Both the position numbers and the translations under genes were made by a program. A stretch of 64,000 nucleotides of DNA from the NCBI GenBank assembly GCA_049322675.1, contig JBMORM010000010.1, forward strand, positions 19,028 through 83,027, read 5' to 3'. Numbering within the stretch: position 1 is the stretch's first letter; the number at the start of each line of letters is the position of its first letter. Below the pieces are notes generated by a model. It saw only the letters and a list, made by a program, of their open reading frames with translations, had not been told where the DNA came from and did not search any database. This DNA is from Patescibacteria group bacterium (lineage in GTDB: Bacteria; Patescibacteriota; JAHJAL01). This document shows, in pieces, positions 8,108 to 63,542 of this stretch.

Positions 8108-8109
8108 AT

Positions 8110-19951: not shown

Positions 19952-20003
19952 AAGACAAGGAAGTATTGAAAATTGAAAATTATAAATTGAAAATTTAATA
20001 AAC

Positions 20004-23000: not shown

Positions 23001-25571
23001 ATATTCTTCGATTATGAGCAGCGCCGATTGCAGCTTGAGGTAAAAGCAGAAAAGGAACAATACGAGCCGGGTGATGAGGCGACGGTAAAAATTGAGGTAA
23101 AGGACGAAAATGGCCAGCCAACTCAAGCACATGGCAATATCTCTTTGGTGGATGAGGCGTATTTTGATTTGTTCAATCGGGAACCTGTGGATACCCTGGC
23201 TTTGTTGTACTCAAAAGTGGAAGACGGTATATTCTTTAGCGAGACTTCCAATAAACCGTTGACGAAAATGATTTTCCAAGGTGGATGTTTTACCGCCGGG
23301 ACAAAAATATTGATGGCCGATGGAACCACCAAGGCGATCGAAGATATTCGTTTGGGCGATTTGGTATCAACTTTTGTTAATGAACATTCCAATATCAAGA
23401 TGACGGACAAGGTAACAAAAATTTTCAACGAAATTTCCGGTGGATATTTGGTGATCAACGATCGGCTCAATGTCACCTCCCACCATCGACTTTTGGTTAA
23501 TAATAAATGGATGACAGCGGGCGAGATAAAAGTAGGCGATTATTTGCGGGATCAAGACGGTGAGTTGGTCAAAGTGGAAAAAATCGAAACAAAAAGTGGC
23601 CGATTCACGGTGTACAACTTTACCACGGAGGCAACTCATACATATATCGCTGACGGAATATATGTCCACAACAGCAAAGGTGGAGGGAGGGAAAGTTTTG
23701 AAGATACCGCCTTTTTCTCTTCATGGAAAACTGATCGAAACGGGAAAGCCACCGTCAAGTTTACTTTGCCGGATAATATCACCAGTTGGAGAATTACCAC
23801 TCAGGGAATTTCGTCCACATTGAGAGCCGGTAGTGGCACCAACAAATTGGTAGTGACTCAACCAATATTTTTGGACATGTCTTTGAATACAAGTTATGTC
23901 AATACAGACAAGCCGATTGTTCCTATCCGAGTCTATGGAGAAAATATGACGGCGGACGACGAGGTGGAAATTACTGTCGAATCAAAAACTTTGAAAACAA
24001 AAGAAAAGTTGCACGGCAAAGCATTTACGACAATCGAATGGTTGATGCCGGAATTGAAGGTGGGGGAACAGGAAATTATCGTGACAGCAAAAGCCAAAGG
24101 ACTGACCGATAGTGTCAAGCGTTCATTTGTGGTAAAAGATACACGATTGACCAAACAGATGAGTCAGAGCGTGAAATTGACAGCGGATTTGAAACCGAAA
24201 CAACAGTCAGAAAATGGCCGGGTGGAGTGGAAGTTTTTTAACGGCGATATCGGATGGGCTTACGAAAATTTGCTCAATGCCAGTTGGCAGGATGGAGAGA
24301 GAATTGATCAAAAGCTGGCGCCGGTAGTGGCAGAAAAATATTTGCAAGAAAGTTTTGGTCTCGGATCGGGCGCGCAAAAAGTTGACGAAATAGCCAAATA
24401 TCAACGAGAAGATGGCGGATGGTCATTGCTTCCCTACTCTGACAGCGATTTGAAATTGTCGGCACTGACGGCAGGAATCGTCCCGGCTGAATGGCAAAAT
24501 GTTACCGAAGCCAAAAAATATTTTAACAATATTTTGGATAATAAAAAAAGTAATACCACTGAGATAGCCATGGCTTTGTATGGTTTAACAAATCTGGATG
24601 AACCGGTTTTGAATCAAATCAATCAGATTTTGAAATGGCCGGAACTGAAGCCAATTGATCAAATCTATTTGGGATTGGCGGCGGAAAAATCGGGCGCCAA
24701 AGAATTGGGAAGAAATATATTGCATGATGTTTTGCAAAAAAATGCGAAAACTAGCGGTGACAATATGTTTATTCCACAATCAGACCAATCGGCTCAAGAC
24801 GAGATCACCAGTCTGGCGGCAATCTTGGCCAATGCCACCGAAATGGACGAAAAGGAAAGCCTGATGAATTATCTGCGAGAGGGTCGGGATGGTGACAATT
24901 TGTATCTTTGGGAAAAAATGATCATCACCAAGAATATTTTGGATAGAAACAATGACCTAGATAGCGAATTTACTTATACTGTGGCAGGAAAAAACAAAAA
25001 AATAAGCCTAAAAAATAACGAGGAATTTGCTCTGAGTTTGACCAATGAGGAAAATAGCAGTTTGGCCTTTTCTCAAATCAAAGGGAAAATAACAGCAGTA
25101 GCGACATGGGAAGAGAAAGCAATAGATACAACAACCGACAAAAATCTGAAAATCAGCCGGGAATACTGGGTCAACGACCAGAAAGTAGATGTCGTCAGAG
25201 AAAATGATTTGGTTGAAGTGCGCATATTTCCTCAAATCAGTGAAGAAGCTCCATCTGACGCTTATCAGATTACCGATCTTTTACCTAGTGGATTAAAACC
25301 AATTACCAGAACATATACGCCATATTGGGGGAACAATGGAGGAAATTGGAAATGCAATGTGTACTTCCCGTCGGATATTAGCGGACAAAAGTTGAGTTTT
25401 ATCGTTTATAAAAACTTAATGCACTCCGGCTGTGAGGGTGGATATATCAGTTATTTTGCCCGGGTAAGCAACAAGGGCGATTTTACCCGCGAATCGGTAA
25501 CGATCAATCAAGTTGACGAGCCAACGTTCCGTTTGACCAGCCAGGAAGACAAGAGATTGGTGATTGAATAA
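20004..25571 (+). CDS. Membrane-anchored alpha-2-macroglobulin (A2M)-family protein with an inserted Hint/intein-like domain; short N-terminal cytoplasmic segment + single TM (anti-sigma-like placement)
   Basis: 1855 aa. The TM helix is WAVGIASFLLVAIVASLLYWL, around aa 92-112. Big/SbsA-Ig-like N-terminal domains are present. The bacterial A2M macroglobulin-domain motif is RESFEDTAFFSSWKTDRNGKATVKFTLPDNITSWRITTQG (compare YfhM/ECAM ..F.ETAFF.P...TD..G...V.F.LPDNLT.WR). The thioester-domain region is FGLGSGAQKV...KYQREDGGWSLLPY, with the CxEQ site degenerated to GSGAQ. A C-terminal receptor-binding-like domain follows. Confidence 0.8.
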   Translation: MENDFNKKLEEAIKTGVFDQIECNNDEERSLLKAGKKIYQAKFKAIPADNGFKNVLFDRLKQARQGEGKTMEKEMVKGQQFDWWAFLTQRKWAVGIASFLLVAIVASLLYWLPGTKQTTGGILIPRAQADEMFTFKPTKADSIGIDEESDFSLVSQIDLKLADVEKYLEVDPAFKYSVKEISAREFLIDSQEKLNPKQIYKFKLKTTTQDANVLESRDFDWAYQIKDEFRITGTIPGDKSDAVPLDSGIEINFNQENFVNFDQSIEISPAIPGRLEKHYKTLVFVPTENLQASTLYQVKVSKSIVLDGSDKKLAEDYTFAFETSTDTTKDGYFEIEDEVGQYGPEEVPGVKMWVNIFDSDENKDVATKLFRLESQDQFLDLLNKRNEIPLWASQARNRAQVDVTGLNKVGEYNLPIHRLDYNQYILFPDKLPIGYYLAQFTVKGQTRQSFIQISNLTAYTSISKTNSLVRIYSLAGQKPAAGTVLTMYQGELEEQTNDEGIAFFATPEVLLTISEKSRFLLATGADGELVIPIKNYERGQIFDTDTSENDNFWRYVFLDRSVYHPTDTIKFWGMIKPRDANTAKVSKVSVGVEMFYPRTDVFGTVEVDLNEDGIFSGEYQLKNMPTSSLNFTIRGENDELLLTSYLNIEDYIKPAYRIELLPDKKAVVQGETVNVRVKAKYFDGTPVANLDLDYQGLTIKTDQVGETNFTVETTDKANCSDYNCWSSSSTIEVKPLRAEEGEIVGVTSVDVFPAKEMVKISGKYDEENGQIAWKINVNEVGFERLNLGEKNYYDDYIGQKLPNHEIQVQIYENWWEKTETGEEEYDFINKVTRKKYSYSREEKLIKEFGEKTDENGEYDYVLNNLTAGKDYTMRASIVDPDGRQYFNRATIYFDGGNYQSIFIDSYGFRKDENEDVKTFKLGEKVNLTMVKNSFDSIPDKTGSYIFYQAQNGITEYQVGDSSKYEFTFEEKHIPNVNVIGVYFDGARFYHTKKVWNDMTIFFDYEQRRLQLEVKAEKEQYEPGDEATVKIEVKDENGQPTQAHGNISLVDEAYFDLFNREPVDTLALLYSKVEDGIFFSETSNKPLTKMIFQGGCFTAGTKILMADGTTKAIEDIRLGDLVSTFVNEHSNIKMTDKVTKIFNEISGGYLVINDRLNVTSHHRLLVNNKWMTAGEIKVGDYLRDQDGELVKVEKIETKSGRFTVYNFTTEATHTYIADGIYVHNSKGGGRESFEDTAFFSSWKTDRNGKATVKFTLPDNITSWRITTQGISSTLRAGSGTNKLVVTQPIFLDMSLNTSYVNTDKPIVPIRVYGENMTADDEVEITVESKTLKTKEKLHGKAFTTIEWLMPELKVGEQEIIVTAKAKGLTDSVKRSFVVKDTRLTKQMSQSVKLTADLKPKQQSENGRVEWKFFNGDIGWAYENLLNASWQDGERIDQKLAPVVAEKYLQESFGLGSGAQKVDEIAKYQREDGGWSLLPYSDSDLKLSALTAGIVPAEWQNVTEAKKYFNNILDNKKSNTTEIAMALYGLTNLDEPVLNQINQILKWPELKPIDQIYLGLAAEKSGAKELGRNILHDVLQKNAKTSGDNMFIPQSDQSAQDEITSLAAILANATEMDEKESLMNYLREGRDGDNLYLWEKMIITKNILDRNNDLDSEFTYTVAGKNKKISLKNNEEFALSLTNEENSSLAFSQIKGKITAVATWEEKAIDTTTDKNLKISREYWVNDQKVDVVRENDLVEVRIFPQISEEAPSDAYQITDLLPSGLKPITRTYTPYWGNNGGNWKCNVYFPSDISGQKLSFIVYKNLMHSGCEGGYISYFARVSNKGDFTRESVTINQVDEPTFRLTSQEDKRLVIE
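23286..23672 (+). other. Hint-domain insertion (mini-intein or bacterial intein-like domain, 129 aa, no endonuclease) within the A2M-like ORF
   Basis: The segment starts with Cys (CFTAGTKILMADGTTKAIEDIRLGDLV...), ends with ...THTYIADGIYVHN, and is followed by Ser (+1). The flanks IFQGG | SKGGGRESFEDTAFF are continuous host sequence leading into the conserved A2M motif. Confidence 0.75.
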
Positions 25572-25595
25572 AGTTTGGGTTATATTTCAATTTTC

Positions 25596-25624
25596 GTAGA
25601 GGCGGTTCATGAACCGCCTCTACA
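25596..25624. repeat. REP-like palindrome (single unit)
   Basis: gtagaggcggttcatgaaccgcctctaca is a perfect hairpin, nearly identical to the copy at 52845. Confidence 0.85.
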
Positions 25625-25705
25625 TATTTTGTGGTTATTTTTCCTTGATTTTTACCTGATAATATGAGATAATATGGGGATTTGGAAAAATCTTAACCTT
25701 ATCAT

Positions 25706-33000: not shown

Positions 33001-34661
33001 AAGAGATTTTTGGCAATGATATTATTACCACATTTCTTAATTGTTTACCGAAGTCTCCCGACCGACGGGAACAAAGCGACCCAAAAAAGGAAGCATTGAA
33101 TCGGGGTAAATATGATCGAGTAACTCCCTGGCTACAATTGATAAGCAATTATTCCGCCGGACTGACATTGACTGAAACTAGTTGGAAATACTGCGGTGAA
33201 TTTATCAAAAAGTACGGCTTGAATGAAGAGAGATTGTGGTTTGAAACATACCGAGATCTATGGCTAAAGGATAATAATATGGCCGACAAAAATGTATTGG
33301 AGAGGATAAATACAACTGGGTTGCAATCGTTGAAAGACTTGGAAGAAAGCAAGAAAAAAATCGAAGATGGACTAATCGGCGACAAATTTGAACTCGATTT
33401 CACCAAATTGAATAATTTTGAGAAATCAATGTTGGACATTATTTTGGGATTGAGCAGTCATAGTCACAATCAAGGAAAACTTTCTCTAGAAGAAGTAATT
33501 GATAATTTTTTACTGGAGAAAGACAACATTAGAGACCTGACGGAAAAATACAAAATATTTTCTTATGATGTCAAAAAGTTGGGCGAGGCGGCGGAGATGC
33601 CGGCCGAAGATAAAGAAAAATATCTCAATATCATCAGTCAAATTAAAGAATTTAGAAAAACCGATTGGCGAAAAATTTGGTCGGGAATGGTTGGAAAAAT
33701 GACCGGAAAGGAACTAACGCAAGATGAATTCGAGCGAATTGACAACAGGCAAACGTTGATGGATTTGTTGAAATTGATAACCGAGAACAAGACTGAATTC
33801 ACCTATAAATACGAGGCTTTAATCAAAAGAATTATTTGGAATACCGTATTAAAGAAAGATTTTCCGACTGAAGAGATGGCTAGCCAACGTCTGAAGGCGT
33901 TGGGAAATCCGGAGAATATTGAACAGGCTGAATCATTGTTGATAAACAATGTTTTGGAGCATGCAATAATCGGGCATATCGAAGATGGTAGCGAAGGAAA
34001 AAATAGTCTGGGAGAGATATGGGGAGAGGAGTTGGCAACAATCATGTCTCGACCGGAGACGCAAAAATGGTTGGTGGAAATATTTGCCCCCGAAAAAAAT
34101 TTATTGGCGGAATTGCGCACAAAACGAGACCGAATAAAAAAATTATCAGAAATAACCGAGATCAAATTTGTTCCCGGACGGGATTTTTTGGGTAGTGTCG
34201 CCGCATATATCGGCGACGCCTGCTATTCAAAAAAAGTACAGTACATGAGTTCTTATGACGGTATCAAAGGACCATTGGTTATGCCCTATCGCATTATCGT
34301 CAATAGAGAAATAGTAGGTTCGGTTTTGATTTTTGAACTCAAAGACGAAAAGGGAGAAAATGACGCTATGTTGGTGAGAGCTTTTAATATTCCGAAACAT
34401 GCAAAGGATTTTGATATGAACGAACTGATAGAAAATTTCTTGAACGAATTGGAGCCAATAGCCAAAGAAAAAGGATATCGAAAAATTGTTGTACCCGGCA
34501 AGTCGCAATCCGGATCGATCAGTAATTCCGAGGTGATAAAAAATATATTTATAAATACTTATACGAAAGAGGAAAATAAGATAGAATTGAAACAGGAATT
34601 TGATTTCAATGGTTATCCGTTGAAAAATGACTGTTATGTAGCAAGGGAGATTAAAATATGA
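30060..34661 (+). CDS. Giant (1533 aa) K/E-rich hypothetical protein, probably co-transcribed with 25706..30055
   Basis: Uninterrupted ORF that starts 5 nt after the preceding stop. Heavy antisense ORF noise inside is typical of a real AT-rich coding region. No recognisable catalytic motif. Confidence 0.7.
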   Translation: MIEKIDNVFENNEDNLGKNSFAGPTQDVQKQKPNEDLVWMRGVESGLIMMDQDLKEIQEGEYFEKKRQIDQKEKEIFWQRLASLNNQDINEENVGDILAIAKIGECLRGELINDIEEKSANEMELKNQIAALEEKREKIRKNHWTRLIPISDIAYIFRPKEKLREVNQEIRKQKDDLYILSSRKQKDKESLEKINEFYQKNTPEKLFAAKAKKEIGKTIEGALKSIEQKYGGKIESDNQILWDLTRQNFKKEILANVANSLLDKKWEDDYRKILEEAIKEKVKKIDQEKIVYNKKNYSFDPQKWLSQDSDIFLSDYDDYGVRKVADWDWKNYRGVFDNAPMIREIIDGLAIKITRKLMEDEFVFHPQQTKEILNRIIEPEKILPYLFLGIKHNWLEGNGYKTKTHLDFLTEIKADLKNKSNFYHAIKQETSVLKVADRKIAYSDGGGDLKVKWNQGDEFTNQDAERLKLFFDPSSMFNHLRGKINGKNDNDPDLTFLVADKRWVQRQEKYSRLLLQKNITADLEKNIKTEKDLAGFYHDEISSLDRFANRIFSLAENKDEGDRIFQDFKDDLSKRMSFGEATLKGWNTISENTNLAKEQIWQIFFDGLKTKKSFPFDPQIVGRELDIFSKMAAAGYCQERILLDKFEEQLLEVANWDNVLGIFKMVKIMPGLEKETVQSFFHKVYDGINHQRPFVSFEDWVKQLDEMINMTAIDKDGLPNWEIDVKEFEESKDITQYQQMIYKKFISSLVCKIDQTQSNARENAQMLSEKSGVSLEKIYAWLLSLENDVRLENNQIFQNLLAEENEQFLIKFIGEISGWKEDKSENRLTDEEINEKIKIFLTKCPKKNKKSILSEMVNLSRMKNREKNIGQTMIAWIINSAGREKNFNPNKLSTIVSMLSVCKRLHWNTEFLPLGPEYEKLLNERKMAVMTLDLKEFNWQNMSDNIIEQMREFLGREKDEVRNSLTQEFLYCPLVNKKIYQEIFGNDIITTFLNCLPKSPDRREQSDPKKEALNRGKYDRVTPWLQLISNYSAGLTLTETSWKYCGEFIKKYGLNEERLWFETYRDLWLKDNNMADKNVLERINTTGLQSLKDLEESKKKIEDGLIGDKFELDFTKLNNFEKSMLDIILGLSSHSHNQGKLSLEEVIDNFLLEKDNIRDLTEKYKIFSYDVKKLGEAAEMPAEDKEKYLNIISQIKEFRKTDWRKIWSGMVGKMTGKELTQDEFERIDNRQTLMDLLKLITENKTEFTYKYEALIKRIIWNTVLKKDFPTEEMASQRLKALGNPENIEQAESLLINNVLEHAIIGHIEDGSEGKNSLGEIWGEELATIMSRPETQKWLVEIFAPEKNLLAELRTKRDRIKKLSEITEIKFVPGRDFLGSVAAYIGDACYSKKVQYMSSYDGIKGPLVMPYRIIVNREIVGSVLIFELKDEKGENDAMLVRAFNIPKHAKDFDMNELIENFLNELEPIAKEKGYRKIVVPGKSQSGSISNSEVIKNIFINTYTKEENKIELKQEFDFNGYPLKNDCYVAREIKI

Positions 34662-34975
34662 TCATTTTTTTAAATTGGTATTATCGGACTTTGACCGTCG
34701 GACTGGCGGGGATTTTTTTGGATATATTTAGCACGATATCTCAGTCGTTCGCCATATCGATTATGGCCAAACATATTTTTGAACCTCTTTACCAGGATTA
34801 CACTTACGCCGGACGAGTGATCGGATTTTTTATCCGGTCGGGGAGGATAATATTGGGACTGATAGTAGAATTTATTTTTCTGCTTATTATCGGCTTGATC
34901 ATGATTTTATGGGTCTTGCTGCCACTGATTATAATTGGAAAAATAATTTTTATACTTTTTACGATGTGGGGCTAA
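34658..34975 (+). CDS. Small membrane protein (105 aa), translationally coupled (ATGA overlap) to the preceding giant gene
   Basis: The start ATG overlaps the stop of 30060..34661. Two to three hydrophobic helices (TVGLAGIFLDIF..., ILGLIVEFIFLLIIGLIMILWVLLPLIIIGKIIFILF). Confidence 0.5.
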   Translation: MIIFLNWYYRTLTVGLAGIFLDIFSTISQSFAISIMAKHIFEPLYQDYTYAGRVIGFFIRSGRIILGLIVEFIFLLIIGLIMILWVLLPLIIIGKIIFILFTMWG

Positions 34976-34977
34976 AG

Positions 34978-35087
34978 AGCAATTTCCAATTTCCAATTCT
35001 CAATTTCCAAAAAATATTTTGTTGGAATATTGGGAAATTGGTTATTGGAAATTTATTGGAAACTGGAAATTGGTTATTGGAAATTTT
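34978..35087. repeat. AATTTCCAA/TTGGAAATT heptad-repeat dyad element (family 2)
   Basis: caatttccaatttccaattctcaatttccaaaaaatattttgttggaatattgggaaattggttattggaaatttattggaaactggaaattggttattggaaatttt lies immediately upstream of the ClpC-like gene start. Confidence 0.8.
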
Positions 35088-37766
35088 ATGAATAAGTTGA
35101 AGGTTGAACTCATTGATTGTCAAAACTGTGCGGTGAATAACGGCGATAGTAATTGCGTGTATTGCAATGGCAAGCAGTATTTGGCCAAAGCAGGCGGCAT
35201 GATATTGTTTTGGGGGCCAAGTAAAGATCCGACTTTTATCAAATCGCCGGAGTATTTGCGTTTTAAAAAAATGACCAAGACCTTGATGTTTTTTGCCAAT
35301 TTGATCATGTTGATTTTGACGACGGTGATTATGGCGATTACTGCTTTGAAGGGCGGACAGAATTTTGTTTTGGATATTTTGGTAAAAAGTTCGCCGGCCA
35401 CTTTTTTGTGGTGGGTGTTGTCGGGATTACTTTTGATAACAGCTTTCAATTATTTTTATCGGGAAGCAAAAATTAAACCGGTCAGGGATTTTGGACCGGT
35501 ACCGACACACGACAGTTTATTTCGACGCGTGGATATTGCAAAAGCGTTTGACGGGGATTTGGTGACGACTTTGAATTTGGCGATAATATCTGCTCATAAG
35601 GCCAATAAGACCCCAAATATTTGGTGGCTACTTCGAGAATTAATGAGCGACAACAAATTTTTGTGGATGATTGTCAAAATGGAATTAAATCCGCAACTTA
35701 TTTCCGGTTTTGTCGATTTTCGCTTGAACAATTTTGAAAGCCGAGAAAATTGGGAAAAAGATTGGGACAAAGTTTTGCTTGAGGCTTATCTGGAGGGAGC
35801 TCGCATGCGAGCGGACGAGATTTCCTTTAATCATTTGTTTTTGGCCATGATAAAAGCAGATCCGGAAATCGCCCACATATTTGATGAACTGGGGCAATCC
35901 CCACGGGAAATTGAAACAGTTTGTCTATGGCAGGAAAAAATAAATAAACAAATCGCCCGTAATCGGGAATATCGGGAAAAATCTCGTTTCAAGCCGATGG
36001 GGCACATGAATCGGGCCTGGACAGCAGTGCCGACACCGATATTGGATTCTTTTGGTCAGGATTTGACAGCCATGGCCAAATATGAAGCGTTGGAGAGATT
36101 AATCGGAAGGGAAAAGGAAATTTCTCAGACGATGAATGTTTTGGAAAAAATGTCCAAAAATAATGTTTTGTTTATCGGTGAATCCGGGGTGGGAAAATCA
36201 ACGATTGCCAATGGTCTGGCCTACAAAATGGTTTCGGAAGAAGTGCCGGAAATGTTGAAAGACAAGAGATTGATCAATTTGAATATAACTCGTCTTTTTA
36301 GTTCAGCGGGAGACGGGGCGGAAAGATTATTTTTGGGCGCATTGAACGAAGTAATACGGGCCAAAAATGTGATTTTATATATCGATGATTTACATTTGCT
36401 GGCTGGCATCAAGACACGTTCGGGCGGACCGATGGATGCTTTGGCAATTTTGTCGGAAACTTTGAGTAAATATCGGATTCAATTTATCGCTTCCACCAGT
36501 CCGGAAGGTTATTCCAAATATATCAGCACTTATGACCAAATAGTTTCCGAATTGACTTCGATTGAAATACCGGAAGTGGACAATGAAACAGCAATTGCGA
36601 TTTTGGAGGAGGTCACGCATCGGATTGAAAATCAAAATCAGGTGCTAATCACCTATCCGGCGTTGAAAATGGCGGTGGAATTGTCAGCGGATTTGATTAC
36701 CGAGAAAAAATTGCCATCCAAGGCCTATGATCTTTTGACAGAAGCAGCGGTAGTGGCTCGTAATCAAAATAAAAAATTAATGACCAAACAAGATATCATT
36801 AATTTAATGCAGGAAAAAACGCATGTGCCGATTGCCCAGGTAACGACAGAGGAATCAAAATTGTTGCTCAATTTGCACGATGAATTGCACAAACGAGTGA
36901 TCGGTCAGGAATTGGCGGTCAAAGAGGTAGCGGAAGCGATCAAACGGGCAAGAGTAGGATTGAAAGATAAAAGCAAACCGATTGCCTCATTTTTGTTTGT
37001 GGGACCAACCGGAGTGGGAAAAACAGAGCTGGCCAAAGCTTTGGCGGCACTATATTTTGGTGATGAAGAACGAATGATCCGTCTGGACATGAGTGAATAC
37101 CAAGAGGTAAGCGATATCAAAAAAATAATCGGCGCGCCGCCCGGTTCGTCGGAATTCGAGGAAAGAGGTTATCTCACCGAAGCAGTGAAAAAGAATCCAT
37201 TTAGTTTGGTCTTGTTGGACGAGTTGGAAAAAGCTTATCCCAATATTTTGAATCTGTTTTTGCAAGTGTTGGACGAGGGAAAGATCAAGGATAGTCTGGG
37301 ACGGACAGTGAAATTTAATAATACGATTATAATCGCTACCTCCAACGCGGGAACGCCCAAGATTCAGGAAGGGATAAAAAATAATCTGCCTCACGAACAG
37401 ATCGAAGAACAGTTGATGGAAGAATTGAAAAAAGTGTATCGACCGGAGTTTTTGAACCGGTTTGACGGAGTGATCATGTTTGAACCGCTCAAAGTGGAGG
37501 AAATATTACAAATTGCCAAATTGATGATTGCCAAGATAAACAAGTCGTTGGCCAACCAAAAAATCACCGTGGAGGTGATGGATGAGGCTTTAAAATCTTT
37601 TATCGCCGGCGGTTACAATCAAGAGTTTGGCGCCAGGGCGCTGTATCGCACTTTGCAGGACAAGGTAAAAAATGTGATCGCGGAGAAGATGCTGACGGGC
37701 GCACTAAAAGAAGGGATGAAGTTGACCATCGTCAAAGATGGGGAGACGAAGGTGGAGAGGGGGTAA
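35088..37766 (+). CDS. Membrane-anchored ClpC/ClpA-like double-AAA+ ATPase with N-terminal zinc-ribbon and TM helices
   Basis: Start chosen at ATG 35088, because the ORF-track start 35019 runs through the repeat element. The N-terminus has CQNCAVNNGDSNCVYCNGKQY plus 2-3 TM helices. Two Clp_N repeats are present. NBD1 is LIGREKEISQTMNVLEKMSKNNVLFIGESGVGKSTIANGLA. NBD2 is VIGQELAVKEVAEAIKRARVGLKDKSKPIASFLFVGPTGVGKTELAKALA...SEYQE and ...FRPEFLNRFDGVIMFEPL. Confidence 0.85.
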   Translation: MNKLKVELIDCQNCAVNNGDSNCVYCNGKQYLAKAGGMILFWGPSKDPTFIKSPEYLRFKKMTKTLMFFANLIMLILTTVIMAITALKGGQNFVLDILVKSSPATFLWWVLSGLLLITAFNYFYREAKIKPVRDFGPVPTHDSLFRRVDIAKAFDGDLVTTLNLAIISAHKANKTPNIWWLLRELMSDNKFLWMIVKMELNPQLISGFVDFRLNNFESRENWEKDWDKVLLEAYLEGARMRADEISFNHLFLAMIKADPEIAHIFDELGQSPREIETVCLWQEKINKQIARNREYREKSRFKPMGHMNRAWTAVPTPILDSFGQDLTAMAKYEALERLIGREKEISQTMNVLEKMSKNNVLFIGESGVGKSTIANGLAYKMVSEEVPEMLKDKRLINLNITRLFSSAGDGAERLFLGALNEVIRAKNVILYIDDLHLLAGIKTRSGGPMDALAILSETLSKYRIQFIASTSPEGYSKYISTYDQIVSELTSIEIPEVDNETAIAILEEVTHRIENQNQVLITYPALKMAVELSADLITEKKLPSKAYDLLTEAAVVARNQNKKLMTKQDIINLMQEKTHVPIAQVTTEESKLLLNLHDELHKRVIGQELAVKEVAEAIKRARVGLKDKSKPIASFLFVGPTGVGKTELAKALAALYFGDEERMIRLDMSEYQEVSDIKKIIGAPPGSSEFEERGYLTEAVKKNPFSLVLLDELEKAYPNILNLFLQVLDEGKIKDSLGRTVKFNNTIIIATSNAGTPKIQEGIKNNLPHEQIEEQLMEELKKVYRPEFLNRFDGVIMFEPLKVEEILQIAKLMIAKINKSLANQKITVEVMDEALKSFIAGGYNQEFGARALYRTLQDKVKNVIAEKMLTGALKEGMKLTIVKDGETKVERG

Positions 37767-37772: not shown

Positions 37773-37806
37773 CAATTTCCAATTCTCAATTTCCAATTTC
37801 CAAATA
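37773..37806. repeat. Heptad-repeat element (family 2, short)
   Basis: caatttccaattctcaatttccaatttccaaatat. Confidence 0.6.
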
Positions 37807-38446
37807 TATTTCGAGGGGATCATATAAAACTTAGCAAACATATCAAACCTAGCAAACTTAACAAAATTTTTAAAAAATACAGCCGAAGGGCTGTTTTTTT
37901 AGAGTTCGGACACAACTTGAATGTTTACACTTTTAACTTATCACCTCACACGGGATCTGTTGCAAGCCCGTAAGGTAAGAGGCTCCTACTCGATCGTGGC
38001 CGGAGAGGACGGCGTAAACCGGGCCGCAGGCGAGGTTGATTTGAAACAATTTGATCCGGCTGGAATTTTTGTTGGGACTGAAAATTGTTTCAATATTCAT
38101 GGGAAATTGCGGGATAGTAATTATTTGTTGAAAGAGATTGAGAAAATGTTGTTTTTTGTAATCCAACAAGCGACGATCGGACAAAATTCTATTTACCCCT
38201 ACCCAACTATATGCGACATCCCGGTTGGTTGATTGTTGTGAATTGATGGAAATGGGGCGAAAGGAATATTGTCTGACTCGATGCCGAAGTTGACGCAGTC
38301 GCGTGGCAAAGTCGTTGGTAAGAGTCAGGGGTTGATCGGCCTGTATAACTTCAATTTGTAAACACAGACTCTTGTATATTTCCAGGCGGGAAAGCCGGTT
38401 TTTGGCGAGATTGTTTAATTTGATAGATTCGAGGGAAGACATAAGA

Positions 38447-38545
38447 CAATTTTTAATTTTCAATTTTTCCCCTCACGGGGACCAGCTGCTGCCGGTAATT
38501 TTCAATCAATTTTCAATGTTTCAATTTCACAATTTTCAAACAAAA
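38447..38545. repeat. Left arm of a family-2 heptad element, interrupted by a MITE copy
   Basis: caatttttaattttcaatttttcccctcacggggaccagctgctgccggtaattttcaatcaattttcaatgtttcaatttcacaattttcaaacaaa. The right arm lies at 38688..38735 beyond the MITE. The ccctcacgggga-ccagctgctg segment recurs reverse-complemented at 63300..63340. Confidence 0.7.
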
Positions 38546-38549
38546 AGAT

Positions 38550-38674
38550 GTCATTCTGGAGCCGAAAGCGTAATCGCGTTTAGACATCCAGAATCCAGAA
38601 AGAAAAAATTTAATAAATTAAGGAAATGGATCCTGGATATTGGAGCGGATTACCTTCCAGTTCCAGGATGACAC
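38550..38674. mobile_element. MITE-like double-hairpin element nested inside a family-2 heptad element
   Basis: gtcattctggagccgaaagcgtaatcgcgtttagacatccagaatccagaaag...ggatcctggatattggagcggattaccttccagttccaggatgacac. Confidence 0.8.
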
Positions 38675-38732
38675 AATACATTATTATCATTGGAAATTTA
38701 TTGGAAATTGAGCCTTGGAAATTGGAAATTTT

Positions 38733-42424: not shown

Positions 42425-42605
42425 TTTATTATTTTGAGACAAATTTCCAAGGATCAATTTCCAATTTCCATTAAATTTCCAATGACCAATTTTCAAACAA
42501 ATAAAGAAACAATATAATTCCATATTTCTACAAGGTTATAATTGTTTGGAAATTGGAAATTGAGCCTTTTTTGGAAACTGGAAATTGGAAATTGGAAATT
42601 AATAA
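42425..42605. repeat. Family-2 heptad-repeat dyad element (full length)
   Basis: ...caatttccaatttccattaaatttccaatgaccaattttcaaacaaataaag...ataattgtttggaaattggaaattgagccttttttggaaactggaaattggaaattggaaatt has left TTCCAA arms, a central TTCAAACAAAT...ATTGTTTGG dyad, and right GGAAATT arms. Confidence 0.8.
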
Positions 42606-43279
42606 TTTATATTCGGATATTTCGGTCGGGCTTTAATGGCCAGAAGCAGCCCGAGGTTGAACCATTTTTCTTCCAAGATTTCGTAACCGATAAATTCCAT
42701 CAGGTGGCGTAATTTGCTGCCGTCGAAACGCTGGACGTGGGAATCGTCCCAGACTCCCCCACCGAGGTTGCCGGGCAAGCGGGTCCAGATTTCCCAGCCA
42801 AGACGAAAATGCAGGTTTTCCGCCGGAACCAAAACAATAACTTGTCCGTCCGGCTTGACCATGCGTTTCATATCTTGCAGGATTTCTACCGGATTTAAAA
42901 CGTGCTCCAAAGTTTCTAAAATCGTAACTGTATCAAAACTTTGATCATCAAATGGAAATTGGTCACTGGCGGCGTCATAGACGGAAAAATCGATGTGAGG
43001 ATATTTTTGACTGGCGTATTGGATAGCGTCAGGAGAAATGTCGATTCCGGTAATCTGAGCATCGGTGTATTTTGACAATTCATTGGTAAAAGTACCGCCG
43101 GCGCAGCCAATATCCAATAATTTACCCTTTGTGCCTCGCAACATGTGACCGATTTTTTTGAAACGATGTTGGTGATAAATACGTTTGATCGGGTGTTTGG
43201 CAATACTGTCGTCATAATAATCGCCGGTAATCGCAGTGTGGATTTGGTCTAAAACTTGTTTGTTGATTTCTTTTTCCAT
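42599..43279 (-). CDS. Class I SAM-dependent methyltransferase
   Basis: 226 aa. LLDIGCAGGTFTNELSKY (motif I), ITGIDISPDAIQYA, FDTVTILETLEHVLNP and DGQVIVLVP. Confidence 0.85.
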   Translation of the reverse strand: MEKEINKQVLDQIHTAITGDYYDDSIAKHPIKRIYHQHRFKKIGHMLRGTKGKLLDIGCAGGTFTNELSKYTDAQITGIDISPDAIQYASQKYPHIDFSVYDAASDQFPFDDQSFDTVTILETLEHVLNPVEILQDMKRMVKPDGQVIVLVPAENLHFRLGWEIWTRLPGNLGGGVWDDSHVQRFDGSKLRHLMEFIGYEILEEKWFNLGLLLAIKARPKYPNINY

Positions 43280-45582: not shown

Positions 45583-45705
45583 TAATAAGTTTTCAATTTC
45601 CAGTTTCCAGTTTCCAAAAAAGGCTCAATTTCCAATTTTCAAACAAATGCATTCGAAATTGTATTACTACTGTGTTTGTTTGGAAATTGAGAATTGGAAA
45701 TTTAG
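45583..45705. repeat. Family-2 heptad-repeat dyad element
   Basis: tttcaatttccagtttccagtttccaaaaaaggctcaatttccaattttcaaacaaatgcattcg...gtgtttgtttggaaattgagaattggaaatttagcc. Confidence 0.8.
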
Positions 45706-45707
45706 CC

Positions 45708-46424
45708 TTAACTGTTGTGTGCTTTAACTTTTATGAAGTCAGTATGATGAAGTATGTATCGATAGCAAAATATCCAGTAAAAAATCAGCCAGCAGATGAC
45801 AAACAAAGTACTGATGTAATCGTGAAAGACGATGGAGGCCATTTCGCCAAGATAAAAGGCAATCATAGCAACTAAGCTGATGCGGACGAGATTTATAATG
45901 ATTGTTCCCAAAATTCCGATGGCGATTGTTTCCAATTTGCTATTGAGAGTAAATGGCCCTTTGAGGCCGACAAACATACTGATAAAAAGCAGAATAAAAC
46001 TTTGCCAGCCGATACAGTTCCAACTGATGAAAATATTGATAGGATTGCCGTCTTTGATGATTTGCAAACCGGTGAGACTGGAAGAAGCTTCGATGCCAAT
46101 CAGTTTGAGGGTGGAGACTACCATTTTGGCTTCAAAGGGAACGACGTGATATTGGAGAATGCGGTAAAGTTCGACTTTGCCAATGATCGTCGTGATAAAT
46201 TCATTGAAAGTACTCACAAACGGCATGACCAAAAATGTGACACAGGCCAAGATAATAATGATTTGAAAGTTGGAAAAGCTAACAGTTTTGATTTCCTCCA
46301 ATTCTCTTTCCAGATTGGTGAGACCAGTAGAAATCGCAGCCAAATTGGCTTCTCCCTTTTGTTCCTTCCGCCAAAATTTCCAGCTTTTGAGTTTAGTAAA
46401 TAGTTTATTAATTTTATTTTTCAT
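45708..46424 (-). CDS. Exosortase/archaeosortase-family-like integral membrane protein (putative sorting transpeptidase)
   Basis: Start set at Met 46424. The ORF-track extension to 46544 is translated repeat DNA. Six to eight TM helices. The candidate active-site region is NIFISWNCIGWQSFILLF...IINLVRISLVAMIAFYLGEMASIVFHDY (Cys, then Arg about 35 aa on, then His/Asp). It lies immediately downstream of a gene ending in a PEP-CTERM-like signal. Confidence 0.55.
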   Translation of the reverse strand: MKNKINKLFTKLKSWKFWRKEQKGEANLAAISTGLTNLERELEEIKTVSFSNFQIIIILACVTFLVMPFVSTFNEFITTIIGKVELYRILQYHVVPFEAKMVVSTLKLIGIEASSSLTGLQIIKDGNPINIFISWNCIGWQSFILLFISMFVGLKGPFTLNSKLETIAIGILGTIIINLVRISLVAMIAFYLGEMASIVFHDYISTLFVICWLIFYWIFCYRYILHHTDFIKVKAHNS

Positions 46425-46459: not shown

Positions 46460-46735
46460 GTGTCATCCTGGAACTGGAAGGTAATCCGCTCAAATATCCA
46501 GGATCCATCTCCTTAATTTTCAATTTATAATTTTCAATTTTCATTAAATTTTCAATGTCTCAATGAATCAATGTTTCAAACTGTGCGTCATTGAAAATTA
46601 AAAACCCTGGATTCTGGATGTCGAAGCGCGATTACGCTTTCGGCTCCAGAATGACAACATTTTTTGTCTGCTTCAATTTGATTTATTAAGTTTAAAAGAG
46701 TTTGCAAGGGTTTATAAGAGTTTCTAAGTGTTTGT
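46460..46735. mobile_element. Full-length MITE-like element (reverse orientation) with nested family-2 heptad repeats, abutting the stop codon of the GT2 gene
   Basis: gtgtcatcctggaactggaaggtaatccgctcaaatatccaggatcc ... [ttttcaatttataattttcaattttcattaaattttcaatg] ... ccctggattctggatgtcgaagcgcgattacgctttcggctccagaatgacaa, then TIR gtttaaaagagtttgcaagggtttataagagtttctaagtgtttg. The stop TAA of 46735..50703 (at 46735-46737) lies at the end of the TIR. Confidence 0.8.
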
Positions 46736-52844: not shown

Positions 52845-52872
52845 TGTAGGGGCGGTTCATGAACCGCCCCTA
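52845..52872. repeat. REP-like palindrome (single unit)
   Basis: gtaggggcggttcatgaaccgcccctac is a perfect hairpin, downstream of groEL. Confidence 0.85.
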
Positions 52873-52999
52873 CGATGATATTTTATTTGCAGACATGGGA
52901 CCAAAAATTGTATTTAATTAAAAACACAATCCCTCAAATCATGTCTGCGTAGGCCAGTGTATGCTTATCGGGATATTTAAGCAATACTTTTTCAAGAAA

Positions 53000-54682: not shown

Positions 54683-54744
54683 TTATTCAGTTAAAAAAGT
54701 GAATTGTGGTTCTTGATGCGTGGAAGAAAGAAAGTTGGTTCATA

Positions 54745-54800
54745 AATTTCCAATTTTCAATTTTCAATTTCCATTAAATTTCCAATTTTCAATTTCCAAA
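54745..54800. repeat. Family-2 heptad repeats in the groES-groEL intergenic region
   Basis: aaatttccaattttcaattttcaatttccattaaatttccaattttcaatttccaaacg. Confidence 0.7.
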
Positions 54801-54809
54801 CGAAAAAGA

Positions 54810-54932
54810 GTGTCATCCTGGAGCTGGAAGGTAATCCGCTCCAATATCCAGGATCCATTTCCTTAATTTATTTTATTTTTTTCTGGATTTAAGGATAAGA
54901 AGCGTGATTACACTTTCTTTCCAGAATGACAA
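54810..54932. mobile_element. MITE-like double-hairpin element inserted between groES and groEL
   Basis: gtgtcatcctggagctggaaggtaatccgctccaatatccaggatcc...ttctggatttaaggataagaagcgtgattacactttctttccagaatgacaa. Confidence 0.8.
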
Positions 54933-56540: not shown

Positions 56541-56570
56541 GTAGGGGCGGGTTTCAAACCCGCCCCTACA
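56541..56570. repeat. REP-like palindrome
   Basis: gtaggggcgggtttcaaacccgcccctaca. Confidence 0.85.
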
Positions 56571-56687
56571 TATATTTTTTTTAAAGATCAAAATAATACC
56601 GATGAATTCATGTTTTTATCGAATCCATCAGTGATTTCATCATATCAGAAAATATTGGAATGTGCCAAAATTTGGGGGTTAATTTTG

Positions 56688-56714
56688 TTGGGGCGGGGTG
56701 ACCCCGCCCGTACA
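56688..56714. repeat. REP-like palindrome
   Basis: ggggcggggtgaccccgcccgtaca. Confidence 0.85.
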
Positions 56715-56774: not shown

Positions 56775-57377
56775 ATGCGAATAAATGCCAGAAAAACAAT
56801 CCGTTTGCCAAATTATGATTATTCATCACCCGATGATTATTTTGTGACGATTTGTACGAAGGATCGGGAATGTTTGTTGGGAAATGTGATTGATGATGAA
56901 ATGGTGTTGAATAAATACGGGAAAATTATTGAACAATATTGGTTTGATTTACCCAATCATTATCCCAATATCATATTGGATGAATTTGTGGTGATGCCCA
57001 ATCATGTGCATATGATCATATCAATCGTAGGGGCGGGGTCTCCCCGCCCTTCCACGGTTTTGCCCCGCCCCTCCATGAATCAAAACGCAATCCGAAACAT
57101 TAAACCGATTCACCAAATAAACGACAATTGTGTGAGGGGCGAGGAAACCTCGCCCCTACGAAAAATACGAAAAATAACGTTGGGCAATATTGTTGCATAT
57201 TTTAAATATCAAACAACCAAACAAATAAACAAAATTTTGTGCAATATTGGTCATAAAATCTGGCAACGGAATTATTTTGAACGGATCATAAGAAATGAAC
57301 GCGAATTGAACAAAACCCGGGAATATATTCAAAACAATCCATACAATTGGCCAAACGATCGAAATAATAATTTATAA
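56775..57377 (+). CDS. IS200/IS605-family Y1 (HuH) transposase of the REP-associated tyrosine transposase (RAYT) type, carrying an in-frame REP insertion
   Basis: 200 aa. The HuH motif is MPNHVHMII. The catalytic-Tyr helix is WQRNYFERIIRNERELNKTREYIQNNPYNW (compare the IS200/RAYT consensus WQR.YY-H.IR.E.-L....YI..NP). Between the two, about 45 aa (GAGSPRPSTVLPRPSMNQNAIRNIKPIHQINDNCVRGEETSPLRKIRK) are encoded by REP DNA (57027..57160). Confidence 0.8.
   Translation: MRINARKTIRLPNYDYSSPDDYFVTICTKDRECLLGNVIDDEMVLNKYGKIIEQYWFDLPNHYPNIILDEFVVMPNHVHMIISIVGAGSPRPSTVLPRPSMNQNAIRNIKPIHQINDNCVRGEETSPLRKIRKITLGNIVAYFKYQTTKQINKILCNIGHKIWQRNYFERIIRNERELNKTREYIQNNPYNWPNDRNNNL
57027..57160. repeat. REP units inserted in-frame inside the RAYT coding sequence
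   Basis: gtaggggcggggtctccccgccc ... ccccgcccctcc ... gaggggcgaggaaacctcgcccctacg. No stop codon in the gene's frame. Confidence 0.8.
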
Positions 57378-57483
57378 CGTACGGGCGGGGTCTCCCCGCC
57401 CCTCCATGGTTATTTTTCCTTTCCACGTTATTTTAACCTCCTTGGGCAATCGCAATGAGGGGCGGGGAAACCCCGCCCCTACG
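57378..57483. repeat. Two REP units immediately 3' of the RAYT gene
   Basis: gtacgggcggggtctccccgcccctcc and gaggggcggggaaaccccgcccctacgg. Confidence 0.85.
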
Positions 57484-59536: not shown

Positions 59537-59687
59537 TCGTAGGGGCGAGGTCTCCTCGCCCCTACATGTTTATTTTTCTTTTTTCAGGTCAAACCCGATG
59601 AAGGGCGGGGAAACCCCGCCCCTACGATTTTGGGCGGACATATACAATCGGGCAGACACGTGGGTCCGCCCCTACGGGGACAAACGC
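59537..59687. repeat. REP-like palindrome cluster (same composite order as 3338 and 6097 clusters)
   Basis: cgtaggggcgaggtctcctcgcccctaca; gggcggggaaaccccgcccctacga; gggcggacatatacaatcgggcagacacgtgggtccgcccctacgggg. Confidence 0.85.
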
Positions 59688-59737: not shown

Positions 59738-59866
59738 TGAGAGAAATTTCCAATTCTCAATTTCCAATTTCCAAAAAATGTCCAATTTCCAATTATCAAA
59801 CTAAATAACATTGGAAATTGTGCCTTGGAAATTTATTGGAAACTGGTCATTGGAAATTGGAAATTT
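59738..59866. repeat. Family-2 heptad-repeat dyad element upstream of rlmN
   Basis: gaaatttccaattctcaatttccaatttccaaaaaatgtccaatttccaattatcaaactaaataacattggaaattgtgccttggaaatttattggaaactggtcattggaaattggaaatttgtc. Confidence 0.8.
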
Positions 59867-59914
59867 GTCAATCAAGCTGATAGACAATTGATAATTTAAT
59901 GAAATAAGAAAAAG

Positions 59915-61150
59915 ATGTTTTCCGAAATTATTAAACAACAGGGGTGGAGTAAGTACCGCGAGAAGCAGATCAATCGCGGGGTTTTTGTGGAACTTGTAAA
60001 TAATTGGCAGGAGATTACTAGTTTACCGAGGGAGATTCGGGATTATTTGGACGATAATGTGCCGTTTTGTTCTTTGAAACTGGTGCGGGAACAGGTAAGT
60101 AAAAATAACGATACGGTGAAAGCATTATTTGAATTGGCGGATGGTAATATGATCGAATCGGTGCTGATGATGCATGCGGACCGCAATACGGTGTGCGTGT
60201 CCAGTCAGGTCGGGTGTCCGGTGGGTTGCACGTTTTGCGCCACCGGGGCGATGGGATTCAAGAGAAATTTAACCAGTCGGGAGATTGTGGATCAGGTGTT
60301 GTGGTGGGCGCGGAAGGCGAGAAATTTCCAATTTCCAAATCCCAGTTTCAAAAAAATTTCCAATGACCAAACAGATACCGTAGGGGCGACCCTTGCGGTC
60401 GCCCGGAATGGGGATATCGTCGGGGCGGATCAATGCGTTCGTCCGGATTTATCGTCCGTAGGGGCGGGGTCTCCCCGCCCATCCATGGATATTTTTCGGG
60501 CAAATATTTCCCGGGTAAATGGCAATACCGCCAAGGGCGGGGAGACCCCGCCCCAACGAGTTAATAATATCGTATTCATGGGGATGGGGGAACCGATGAT
60601 GAATTTGGAGAATGTGGCTGATGCGATAACTGTTTTGACGGACAAAGAGAAATTTGGGATTAGTAAGAGGAAAATTACCATTTCGACCAGCGGATATATT
60701 GCCAATTTGGATAAATTGTTGAAACAATTTCCGCATATTGGACTGGCAATCAGTTTGCATGCGCCGACGCAAGAGTTGCGGGAAAAAATCATGCCGACAG
60801 CGGCAAAAAATAATCCGTTGGATAAATTGATTGATCTGGTAGCAGATTATTCTCGCAAGACGAAACGGAGGGTGAGTTTTGAATATATACTGATTGAAAA
60901 GGTCAATGACGACTTGATTCAGGCGCAACAATTGGCAAAATTGTTGTCAAATAAAGGTTTTCTTTTTCATGTCAATTTGATAGCATTTAATGCGGACAAA
61001 AAAAATGGCGCGCAAAAATACTCTCGACCAAACAGCCAGCGGGTGAATTTTTTTCGAGATGAACTGATCAAACTGAAAGTGCCGGTATCGATCAGATCCA
61101 GCATGGGTGAGGATATCGCCGCCGCCTGCGGACAATTGGCCAATAACTGA
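59915..61150 (+). CDS. rlmN: 23S rRNA (adenine2503-C2)/tRNA methyltransferase RlmN (radical SAM) with a ~240-nt in-frame repeat insertion
   Basis: 411 aa. The radical-SAM cluster is CVSSQVGCPVGCTFCATGAMGFKRNLTSREIVDQV. Downstream are NIVFMGMGEPMMNLENV, ITISTSGY, LAISLHAPTQELREKIMP and FEYILIEKVNDD. Between WWARKA and NNIVFMGMGEP lie about 80 extra aa (RNFQFPNPSFKKISNDQTDTVGATLAVARNGDIVGADQCVRPDLSSVGAGSPRPSMDIFRANISRVNGNTAKGGETPPQRV) encoded by family-2 heptads plus three REP units. Confidence 0.85.
   Translation: MFSEIIKQQGWSKYREKQINRGVFVELVNNWQEITSLPREIRDYLDDNVPFCSLKLVREQVSKNNDTVKALFELADGNMIESVLMMHADRNTVCVSSQVGCPVGCTFCATGAMGFKRNLTSREIVDQVLWWARKARNFQFPNPSFKKISNDQTDTVGATLAVARNGDIVGADQCVRPDLSSVGAGSPRPSMDIFRANISRVNGNTAKGGETPPQRVNNIVFMGMGEPMMNLENVADAITVLTDKEKFGISKRKITISTSGYIANLDKLLKQFPHIGLAISLHAPTQELREKIMPTAAKNNPLDKLIDLVADYSRKTKRRVSFEYILIEKVNDDLIQAQQLAKLLSNKGFLFHVNLIAFNADKKNGAQKYSRPNSQRVNFFRDELIKLKVPVSIRSSMGEDIAAACGQLANN
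60320..60560. repeat. Composite repeat insertion (family-2 heptads + 3 REP palindromes) lying in-frame inside rlmN
   Basis: gagaaatttccaatttccaaatcccagtttcaaaaaaatttccaatgaccaaac... gtaggggcgacccttgcggtcgcccgg ... gtaggggcggggtctccccgcccatcc ... gggcggggagaccccgcccc. Length is about 241 nt (a multiple of 3 within error), with no stop in the gene frame. Confidence 0.8.
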
Positions 61151-63366: not shown

Positions 63367-63542
63367 AAATTTTTTTTCCTTGTCTAAATTATAAATGATC
63401 CCTGGGCTTTACGGCAGAGATATTTTTGTGGTAATATGAATTAAATAATGTGTACCTTAAAAATTAGGGTTTCAGACGAAATTTTTGAAAATCATGTTTT
63501 TAATTATATTAATTTTCTTTTATTCTTTAAATGAGGTTTGTA

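Follow-up and report, generated by a model that had tools for sequence, protein, structure and literature searches.

Inverted arrays of TTGGAAA-type heptads recur along the 64,000-nt stretch of an uncultured Patescibacteria (candidate phyla radiation, CPR) genome analyzed here. This whole stretch is called the window, and the repeat family was censused within it. One of the arrays, in the interval 42425-42605, comprises four units of the AATTTCC type, then a centre of 35 nt, then six units of the GGAAATT type. Such heptad dyads are a real, non-random and abundant repeat family. With somewhat better than even confidence, they are interpreted as lineage-specific, non-coding palindromic dispersed repeats with a heptamer-satellite substructure, akin to repetitive extragenic palindromic (REP) sequences, miniature inverted-repeat transposable elements (MITEs) and Rickettsia palindromic elements (RPEs).

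Abundance and sequence sources

The sequence TTGGAAATTGGAAA, with at most one mismatch, was found 24 times in the window compared with 0.37 ± 0.56 times in shuffles, and TTGGAAA alone gave 99 matches against 41 expected. Although intergenic DNA makes up only about 12% of the window, 23 of the 24 TTGGAAATTGGAAA matches are intergenic, the exception lying within rlmN. The matches cluster into at least 22 arms at 13 loci. At 15 places, head-to-tail 7-nt units build up period-7 arrays of 21-56 nt, beyond what chance would give. A preliminary description of this DNA had listed arrays at many coordinates, and each was recovered at or within about 15 bp of the coordinate given. The element of the interval is present as described, except that it starts at about 42438 and not at 42425. 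The N-terminal extensions of open reading frames (ORFs) at 35019, 46544 and 63235, suspected to be spurious, are indeed translated repeats.

The best matches of the window GroEL are proteins of 'Patescibacteria group bacterium' with 77-82% identity. Contigs assembled from short reads of the same population (Logan SRR32167788) match the window with 100% identity and stop inside the repeats, as is usual where multi-copy repeats break an assembly. The sibling metagenome-assembled genome GCA_016294905.1 (L253), whose 701-aa protein has 73% identity, is collinear with the window over 34.6-52.7 kb. Identity in the 701-aa protein is 76-77% for the relatives L254 and L255, while L250 and L251 were compared at the rlmN locus. 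No TTGGAAA clusters were found in the relatives L002-L007 (77-82% GroEL identity); a different heptad array is present in L006.

A shared arm module

Alignment of the copies, proposed earlier as a way to derive a consensus, placed seven long arms without gaps on a single sequence of about 62 nt, TATTTGTTTGGAAATTGGnnATTGGAAATTTAtTGGAAAcTGGAAATTGgnnATTGGAAATTT. Between orthologous arms of the window and its relatives, unit numbers differ. An arm is a module of about 60 nt containing about eight degenerate TTGGAAA heptads, with the inner end ATTTGTTTGG and the outer end GGAAATTTGT. Irregularities are common to the arms, among them an 11-nt step and the variant units TTGTGCC, TTGATCA and GAGCCTTTTTT. 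The fixed inner and outer ends, together with these common irregularities, indicate a discrete module rather than a freely slipping microsatellite, and gap-free alignment with identical irregularities across loci requires copying between loci. As judged from the alignment, the arms are of common descent. The best match of each arm is an arm at another locus. Examples are the E42 left arm, paired in this way with the E43 right arm, and the E42 right arm, paired with the E45 left arm (elements designated as in Table 1). In the latter pair, one arm is nearly identical to the reverse complement of the other over about 55 nt, including the irregular GAGCCTTTTTT.

The complete elements are about 100-190 bp long and consist of two inverted modules around a short variable centre. 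In every dyad of the window the left arm is of the AATTTCC type and the right arm of the GGAAATT type, in agreement with the left TTTCCAA-type and right TTGGAAA-type arms of the preliminary description. The polarity is the same on both strands and is therefore a genuine structural rule. The centres, 11-45 nt in length, are mutually unrelated in sequence. A central dyad, TTCAAACAAAT / ATTTGTTTGG, had been considered conserved; it does exist, but it corresponds to the inner end of the module and is found in only about half of the copies.

In six elements the inverted arms of 30-62 nt show 76-83% complementarity. The AT-rich tandem heptads of a single arm have no self-complementarity, so an arm does not fold alone. 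All dyads are predicted to form long hairpins of -20 to -50 kcal/mol, and the outer arm ends run into T3-T8. The predicted folds showed no strand preference, the sense and antisense forms being equally stable with three cases each way. Covariation of partner arms was not detected: the similarity of an arm to its own partner was 0.453 compared with 0.459 for non-partners (permutation p = 0.52). Since partner arms are no more complementary than non-partners, there is no sign of compensatory evolution. Whatever the frame, the AATTTCC, AATTCTC and AATTTTC units are free of stop codons.

A planar bend needs A-tracts phased at about 10.5 bp. At the 7-bp spacing each tract points about 240 degrees away from the one before it and the bends cancel out, so the intrinsic curvature earlier attributed to the 7-bp phasing is not expected.

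Filled and empty sites

Relative to solved RlmN structures, the rlmN gene of the window contains a 77-codon in-frame insertion (about 60326-60557), composed of one heptad arm in its 5' part followed by four GC-rich REP-like hairpins. The copy previously noted inside this gene was confirmed as an in-frame arm. Two rlmN orthologues with 87-89% identity (P0122 and P0123; 352 and 367 aa versus 411 aa) lack the arm and two REPs and keep only the distal, REP-derived part of the insertion. More distant orthologues of 335 aa have nothing at this site.

The E35 site is empty in L253, where the upstream stop codon overlaps the ClpC ATG (GGGGTATGAAC). The groES-groEL spacer, which contains one arm, is 291 bp long in the window versus 31-49 bp in L002, L004 and L006. 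As the alignments read, these are filled versus empty sites and in-frame insertions.

Turnover at orthologous sites

Comparison with relatives showed that sites are kept while units are replaced. At the E45 site the dyad is of the TTTTCAA type in L253, of the TTTCCAA type in L255 and of the ACTTGNN type in L254. The E43 site holds a TTTTCAA-type dyad in L255, a heptad arm in L254 and an unrelated palindrome in L253, and a short degenerate dyad occupies the E42 site of L253. The arm-MITE-arm composite E38, including the MITE copy at 38548, is kept at the orthologous L253 site. Four heptads at the ClpC 3' end of the window correspond to one heptad plus a 10-mer dyad in L253 and to a 230-bp CATTTCA-type array in L006. 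At the E59 site both L250 and L251 have a dyad of 10-mers (AAACTCTTTG/CAAAGAGTTT), and L251 has a 10-mer-family arm at the E63 site.

Occurrence in sibling genomes, raised as a check in the preliminary description, thus gave a divided answer: in four sibling genomes, orthologous spacers usually carry some dyad array, but of other unit types. Position and dyad architecture persist while the unit family changes, which resembles a satellite 'library' with differential amplification. Such persistence of dyads suggests that the orthologous sites are either hot spots of insertion or under selection for some palindrome.

The palindrome at the E43 site of L253 (12120-12215) is a different element, CTGGCGGGAAATATTTA...TAAATATTTCCCGCCAG. 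Homology between the E59 centre and the centre of the 10-mer dyads of L250 and L251 was suspected; alignment gave no support for it.

Position relative to genes

Arms start 0-15 nt past the stop codon of the neighbouring gene in all eight cases (8/8), and the distance from arm to start codon is 4-80 nt. One arm lies between convergent genes beside a canonical terminator, one in the groES-groEL spacer and one within rlmN. The elements had been described as located at gene 5' ends. Arrays do lie within the above distance of several starts, but the tie to stop codons is at least as tight, and convergent and intragenic arms occur as well. Gene 5' ends are accordingly only half of the picture, and the elements fill compact spacers. 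Non-operonic 3' ends in the window nearly all have a palindrome, whether a canonical terminator, a GC-rich REP, a dyad array or a MITE. Many of the flanking genes encode GT-C or GT2 glycosyltransferases; housekeeping genes (ClpC, GroEL, rlmN and TrxB) are also among them.

Position with respect to -35/-10 elements had been put forward as a test. A scan showed no enrichment of promoter-like sites (37 versus 29.8 ± 5.6 in shuffles), and terminator-like sites were not enriched either (11 versus 10.9). The post-stop position and the hairpin energies of the dyads fit intrinsic terminators. Nevertheless, their stems are AU-rich, their U-runs are mostly 3-4 nt long and none was caught by the terminator scan. 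Searching the whole window against Rfam at gathering thresholds returned tRNA-Val only. At E <= 1, the 34.9-46.8 kb region gave only sub-threshold matches to hairpins resembling miRNA precursors and no known RNA family.

Occurrence in other genomes

The 21-mer GGAAATTGAGAATTGGAAATT, which has four copies in the window, was found in at least 120 metagenome contigs and at least 108 distinct contexts with GC contents of 35-69%. Among the matches listed, about 30% of contexts have an upstream AATTTCC-type partner, and in 94 independent metagenome contexts the AATTTCC->GGAAATT polarity outnumbers the reverse by 20 to 3. The metagenome loci among these listed matches have arrays facing a gene start and a gene end about equally (25 versus 24).

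Among the matches listed, at least 24 of 108 contexts place the motif within a long ORF, one that stays open for 240 nt or more to either side. In the same set, the AATTTCC strand is the coding strand in 22 of 24 ORF-internal contexts, and 22 of 25 translated ORFs read the motif in the frame of the hydrophilic peptide ISNSQFP. That AATTTCC-type units are free of stop codons in all frames explains why one strand is favoured and why insertions are tolerated. Host genes among the listed matches encode LepA, TsaD, class I aminoacyl-tRNA synthetases, MnmA, the CCA-adding enzyme and LigA. Alignment to solved PDB structures identified the segments in LepA (28 aa) and TsaD (10 aa) as insertions. An identical module of 21-30 nt is therefore seen within unrelated genes of many contigs.

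BLASTN of 120 metagenome loci against the window detected no homologous flanks, so these loci are unusable as orthologous sites. The 21-mer had no match in viral contigs. A 16-mer scan of genome contigs returned, among the matches listed, mostly chance single matches, the probe being too short. Magasanikbacteria genomes have analogous dyads in which TTGGAAA, TTGACAT and TTTGGAT units are mixed. The searchable literature yielded no account of dyads of the TTGGAAA type or of CPR proteins with heptad insertions, and a full-text search for the motif strings gave nothing relevant.

AT-rich spacer arrays of TTGGAAA/TTGAGAA were also observed in seven contigs of 54-69% GC (L149, L138, L145, L141, L242, L167 and L151). 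They contain up to five 14-nt double units, and some adjoin start codons. The same heptads on such different GC backgrounds pose the question of horizontal spread or a shared recognizing factor.

Interpretation and alternatives

As palindromic dispersed repeats, the heptad dyads would act as invasive, satellite-like DNA. Modules would enter short spacers directly past stop codons, by insertion or copying, and now and then also coding loops, in frame. Arms would be swapped or replaced between loci, and dyad centres would attract further nested palindromic elements. The copying would probably proceed by ectopic recombination, gene conversion, template switching or an enzyme acting in trans without duplicating the target. 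The elements would share the 3'-end niche of transcription units with terminators and REPs; given this niche, any effect on expression would come from the hairpin and not from a sequence-specific regulator.

Several observations weigh against this interpretation. No shared direct repeat was found in the flanks of 10 arms, and the sole candidate for a target-site duplication is TA at E35 (filled versus empty in L253), a single case in AT-rich DNA. The preliminary description had named bounding target-site duplications as contrary evidence for its own proposals; no consistent one was seen in the flanks inspected. No transposase or parent insertion sequence (IS) linked to heptad ends was found in the window, and the centres are not conserved between copies. 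The spacers of siblings usually hold some dyad array, and pure junk would be expected to be lost from a streamlined genome. In addition, the differences in unit number between orthologous arms point to a contribution of slippage in situ, as does the ClpC 3' end with one heptad in L253 versus four in the window.

It is possible, if on balance doubtful, that the dyads are RNA or DNA hairpins selected at the ends of transcription units, serving as bidirectional terminator-like structures, as 3'-end stabilizers of mRNA or as translation-coupling hairpins. Any AT-rich inverted array would then suffice, so units would change and the position would stay. Such a role is compatible with a selfish origin, as a non-exclusive co-option. 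It agrees with the arms starting 0-15 nt past stops (8/8), with the predicted energies of -20 to -50 kcal/mol and the outer ends running into T3-T8, and with the orthologous spacers of L250, L251, L253, L254 and L255, which keep a dyad array despite another unit family. Where a complete hairpin might harm (groES-groEL and rlmN), moreover, a single arm is present. Nevertheless, complementarity is no higher between partner arms than between other arms (0.453 versus 0.459, p = 0.52), sense and antisense folds are equally stable and E35 is dispensable in the sibling L253. The stems are AU-rich with short U-runs, terminator-like sites are not enriched (11 versus 10.9) and the genome also has ordinary GC-rich terminators. 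An origin as heptanucleotide simple sequence repeats (SSRs), born and resized in place by replication slippage and acting as contingency (phase-variation) loci that tune surface-glycosylation genes, is improbable. The gap-free alignment of seven arms with the same non-heptad irregularities would not result from independent slippage, and an identical 21-30-nt module is present in unrelated genes of many contigs. Arrays also lie beside the housekeeping genes ClpC, GroEL, rlmN and TrxB. In favour of such loci, many flanking genes encode GT-C or GT2 glycosyltransferases. No length variation was seen between two assemblies of the population, both probably from the same reads. Slippage would account for the variable unit number of orthologous arms, including the one versus four units at the ClpC 3' end, and for the MITE loop at 46509-46605, which looks expanded out of its own AT-rich sequence. 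Heptamers are also the most over-represented class of long bacterial SSRs according to Mrazek 2007, as cited in PMC4679880 and PMC4692102.

Highly improbable is the earlier proposal of an iterated operator, in which a global DNA-binding protein or sigma factor would use the heptads as half-sites or -35-like hexamers at downstream promoters. The outward units TTGGAA/TTGAAA do look like -35 hexamers, the outermost one takes part in a few weak -35/-10 combinations, and several start codons have an array 4-80 nt upstream. For Beggiatoaceae, a role as regulator sites has been proposed for TAACTGA heptamer arrays that precede start codons (PMC4679880). Against an operator, arms follow stop codons, lie between convergent genes and occur in frame inside coding sequences; promoter-like sites are not enriched; and the 7-bp spacing places successive sites on different helix faces. 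Metagenome loci among the matches listed face gene starts and gene ends equally (25 versus 24). The units at the same sites in siblings are unrelated (10-mers, TTTTCAA and ACTTGNN), which means that no sequence-specific site is conserved at the orthologous spacers.

The interpretation as dispersed repeats may be extended beyond the window, albeit only as a rather unlikely proposition. Stop-free AATTTCC-type heptad modules would then be a widespread, so far undescribed and very small form of invasive DNA in Patescibacteria and other uncultured bacteria. Having no transposase, terminal repeats of their own or target duplication, they would colonize spacers and the surface loops of essential proteins (such as LepA, TsaD, aminoacyl-tRNA synthetases and RlmN) and would persist for long at orthologous sites while their units turn over. 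If this were true, it would imply dedicated copying or templated synthesis, or a conserved factor that recognizes single strands with a 7-nt period.

Comparison with known repeats

RPEs, reportedly described by Ogata and co-workers in 2000, are about 100-150 bp long and occur both between genes and in frame within protein-coding genes. The heptad elements are likewise short, palindromic, dispersed and intergenic, and enter genes in frame without destroying them (rlmN here; LepA, TsaD and aminoacyl-tRNA synthetases in metagenomes). Insertion that keeps the frame, as in RPEs, was found for rlmN against its orthologues and for LepA and TsaD against structures. Unlike the present elements, RPEs are bound to Rickettsia and have no tandem heptads; here the repeats are tandem 7-mers, the inserted piece may be as short as about 30 nt and one strand is free of stops. 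Modular intergenic repeats with variable internal subunits and the potential for stable hairpins are also known as pneumococcal BOX elements. The likeness extends to the modularity, variable subunit number and hairpin potential, but BOX subunits are 45-59 nt long, are not heptads and have distinct boxA/boxC ends.

The resemblance to REPs, bacterial interspersed mosaic elements (BIMEs) and REP doublets forming hairpins (REPINs) lies in the extragenic position, the gene 3' ends, the inverted hairpin doublets, the many copies, the lack of target duplication and the nested insertions (PMC3116915). However, REPs are GC-rich imperfect palindromes of 20-40 nt with a GTAG head and a REP-associated tyrosine transposase (RAYT), whereas heptad arms are AT-rich, do not fold by themselves and have no linked RAYT. 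The halves of REPINs co-vary and those of heptad dyads do not. What defines a REP is found in the window in the separate GTAGGGGCGGG...CCCGCCCCTAC family and not in the heptad arms. The preliminary suggestion of a second MITE family was borne out in part: the dyads are small, multi-copy and non-coding, have long terminal inverted repeats (arms of about 60 nt), show filled and empty sites between relatives and break assemblies. They differ from MITEs in having no consistent target-site duplication, conserved centre or identified parent IS, and single arms also disperse.

Heptanucleotide repeats reportedly described by Mazel in 1990 are the cyanobacterial short tandemly repeated repetitive (STRR) sequences. 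Other examples are the GGGAATC repeats of Xanthomonas and GGGGAYT repeats of Nostoc (PMC4692102) and the TAACTGA repeats of Beggiatoaceae, Cyanobacteria and Bacteroidetes (PMC4679880). Bacterial heptamer arrays are intergenic and of unknown function, and some form inverted pairs or lie directly upstream of starts (PMC4692102, PMC4679880). The present arrays share with them the intergenic tandem 7-mers, a length and sequence that vary between close relatives, the occasional inverted pairing and the scattering across phyla. They differ in forming a discrete dispersed module of about 60 nt, nearly always in dyads of fixed polarity, that also invades coding sequences. The elements combine traits of STRRs, RPEs and REPs/REPINs and fail the defining tests of MITEs, REPs/REPINs and operator arrays.

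CPR (Patescibacteria) genomes are regarded as streamlined. Despite this, most spacers of a 45-kb stretch are given over to at least four nested palindromic or tandem repeat families. The elements matter for annotation and binning, since they produce false N-terminal extensions, conserved proteins inflated by repeats and broken assemblies. Kept dyad sites with replaced units offer a tractable case of REP-like repeats as parasites, domesticated hairpins or both, and the recurrence of the identical 21-30-nt module in housekeeping genes across many unrelated contigs is relevant to the over-representation of heptamers in bacteria.

Feature list and companion repeats

Table 1. Heptad elements and companion repeats, with positions in the window unless a relative is named
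Feature	Position	Structure	Context
E18 short dyad	18876-18976		starts 1 nt past TrxB-like stop; MITE 18989-19115 next
TTTTCAA/TTGAAAA-type dyad	19798-20000	MITE 19829-19951 at centre	right arm ends 4 nt before 1855-aa gene start
E35 dyad	34976-35089		between stop of ORF 34658-34975 and true ClpC-like start (ATG 35090)
Solo arm	37773-37810	9-mer array and canonical terminator downstream	7 nt past ClpC-like stop, convergent spacer
E38 split dyad	38447-38732	TTTTCAA-type left arm; MITE of about 125 bp, 38548-38674; right arm 38682-38732	right arm adjoins GT2 stop
E42 left arm	42438-42503	AATTTCC-type, inner end TTTTCAAACAAAT; gap-free to arm consensus	best match E43 right arm
E42 centre	42504-42538	AT-rich, non-conserved	
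E42 right arm	42539-42602	GGAAATT-type	outer end overlaps methyltransferase stop (gene 42599-43279, -)
E43 dyad	43326-43447	fold -33 kcal/mol, both strands	between 701-aa gene stop (43460) and methyltransferase start (43279)
E45 dyad	45588-45712		between exosortase-like gene stop (45708) and 701-aa gene start (45565)
MITE with heptad array	46461-46655	central loop replaced by array of about 100 nt, 46509-46605	
Solo arm	54742-54806		groES-groEL spacer; neighbouring MITE 54810-54932
E59 dyad	59741-59868		upstream of rlmN
rlmN arm	60320-60372	in-frame solo arm, + strand	within rlmN
E63 dyad	63190-63376	right arm broken by 27-nt repeat 63306-63332	upstream of PMT_2 gene (true start 63181)
MITE copies	3590-3700, 8165-8285, 18989-19115, 19829-19951, 38548-38674, 46461-46655, 54810-54932		
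GC-rich REPs	3378-3465, 6097-6259, 25590-25630, 52846-52873, 56541-56713, 57027-57482, 59539-59675, 60380-60557		
10-mer arrays	8108-8160 + 8295-8345, 46690-46734; L250 130-235; L251 55-160, 3380-3416; L253 17561-17650		

The MITE of about 125 bp (GTGTCATCCTGGA...TCCAGGATGACAC) has about seven copies in the window, five of them at the exact centre of inverted tandem arrays of 7-mers or 10-mers. Reverse nesting, with a heptad array filling the MITE loop, occurs once (46509-46605). Heptad copies nested in a MITE, as noted in the preliminary description, are thus real in one case, but five times it is the MITE that sits within the dyad. This suggests that the MITE targets palindrome centres and that these centres are preferred landing or expansion sites. 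If so, the arrays may extrude as hairpins or cruciforms in vivo. Between two complete MITEs of the same orientation, each embedded in heptad arrays, lies a gene for a sigma-70 factor of the extracytoplasmic function (ECF) type (19168-19806; PF04542, PF08281), and the layout of the region 18989-19951 is like that of a composite cassette.

GC-rich REP-like hairpins, GTAGGGGCGGG...CCCGCCCCTAC, form a second family of about 24 half-sites with a GTAG head, often clustered. Some of them fall within called ORFs, rlmN among them. The ORF at 56775-57377 (200 aa) has a partial match to IS200-like Y1 transposases (PF01797, E = 3.9e-7, residues 133-188). It is the only Y1_Tnp-like ORF, and the repeats that border and interrupt it are GC-rich REPs rather than heptad arms; with these REPs around it, it is possibly a decayed RAYT of the GC-rich REP family.

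The dyad arrays of 10-mers (AAACTCTTTG... / ...CAAAGAGTTT) have the same architecture as the heptad dyads and take heptad-dyad sites in relatives. Their A/T phasing of about 10 bp could curve DNA, unlike that of the 7-mers. A third type of array has a 9-nt unit (AAACNTAGC / GCTANGTTT; 37826-37866 and 8350-8390). A GC-rich repeat of 27 nt, CCCTCACGGG(G)ACC..GCTGCTG..GG, lies inside heptad arms in opposite orientations, nested in the left arm of E38 (38470-38496) and in the right arm of E63 (63306-63332).

Two observations concern neighbouring genes. In L253 an additional 783-aa gene with a T4SS_pilin match (2384-4735) lies between the 587-aa and GT2 genes, and the window is without it. The 1855-aa alpha-2-macroglobulin-like protein (20004-25571) has a Hint/intein-like domain (PT-HINT, residues 1103-1224) between its bait-region and A2M domains.

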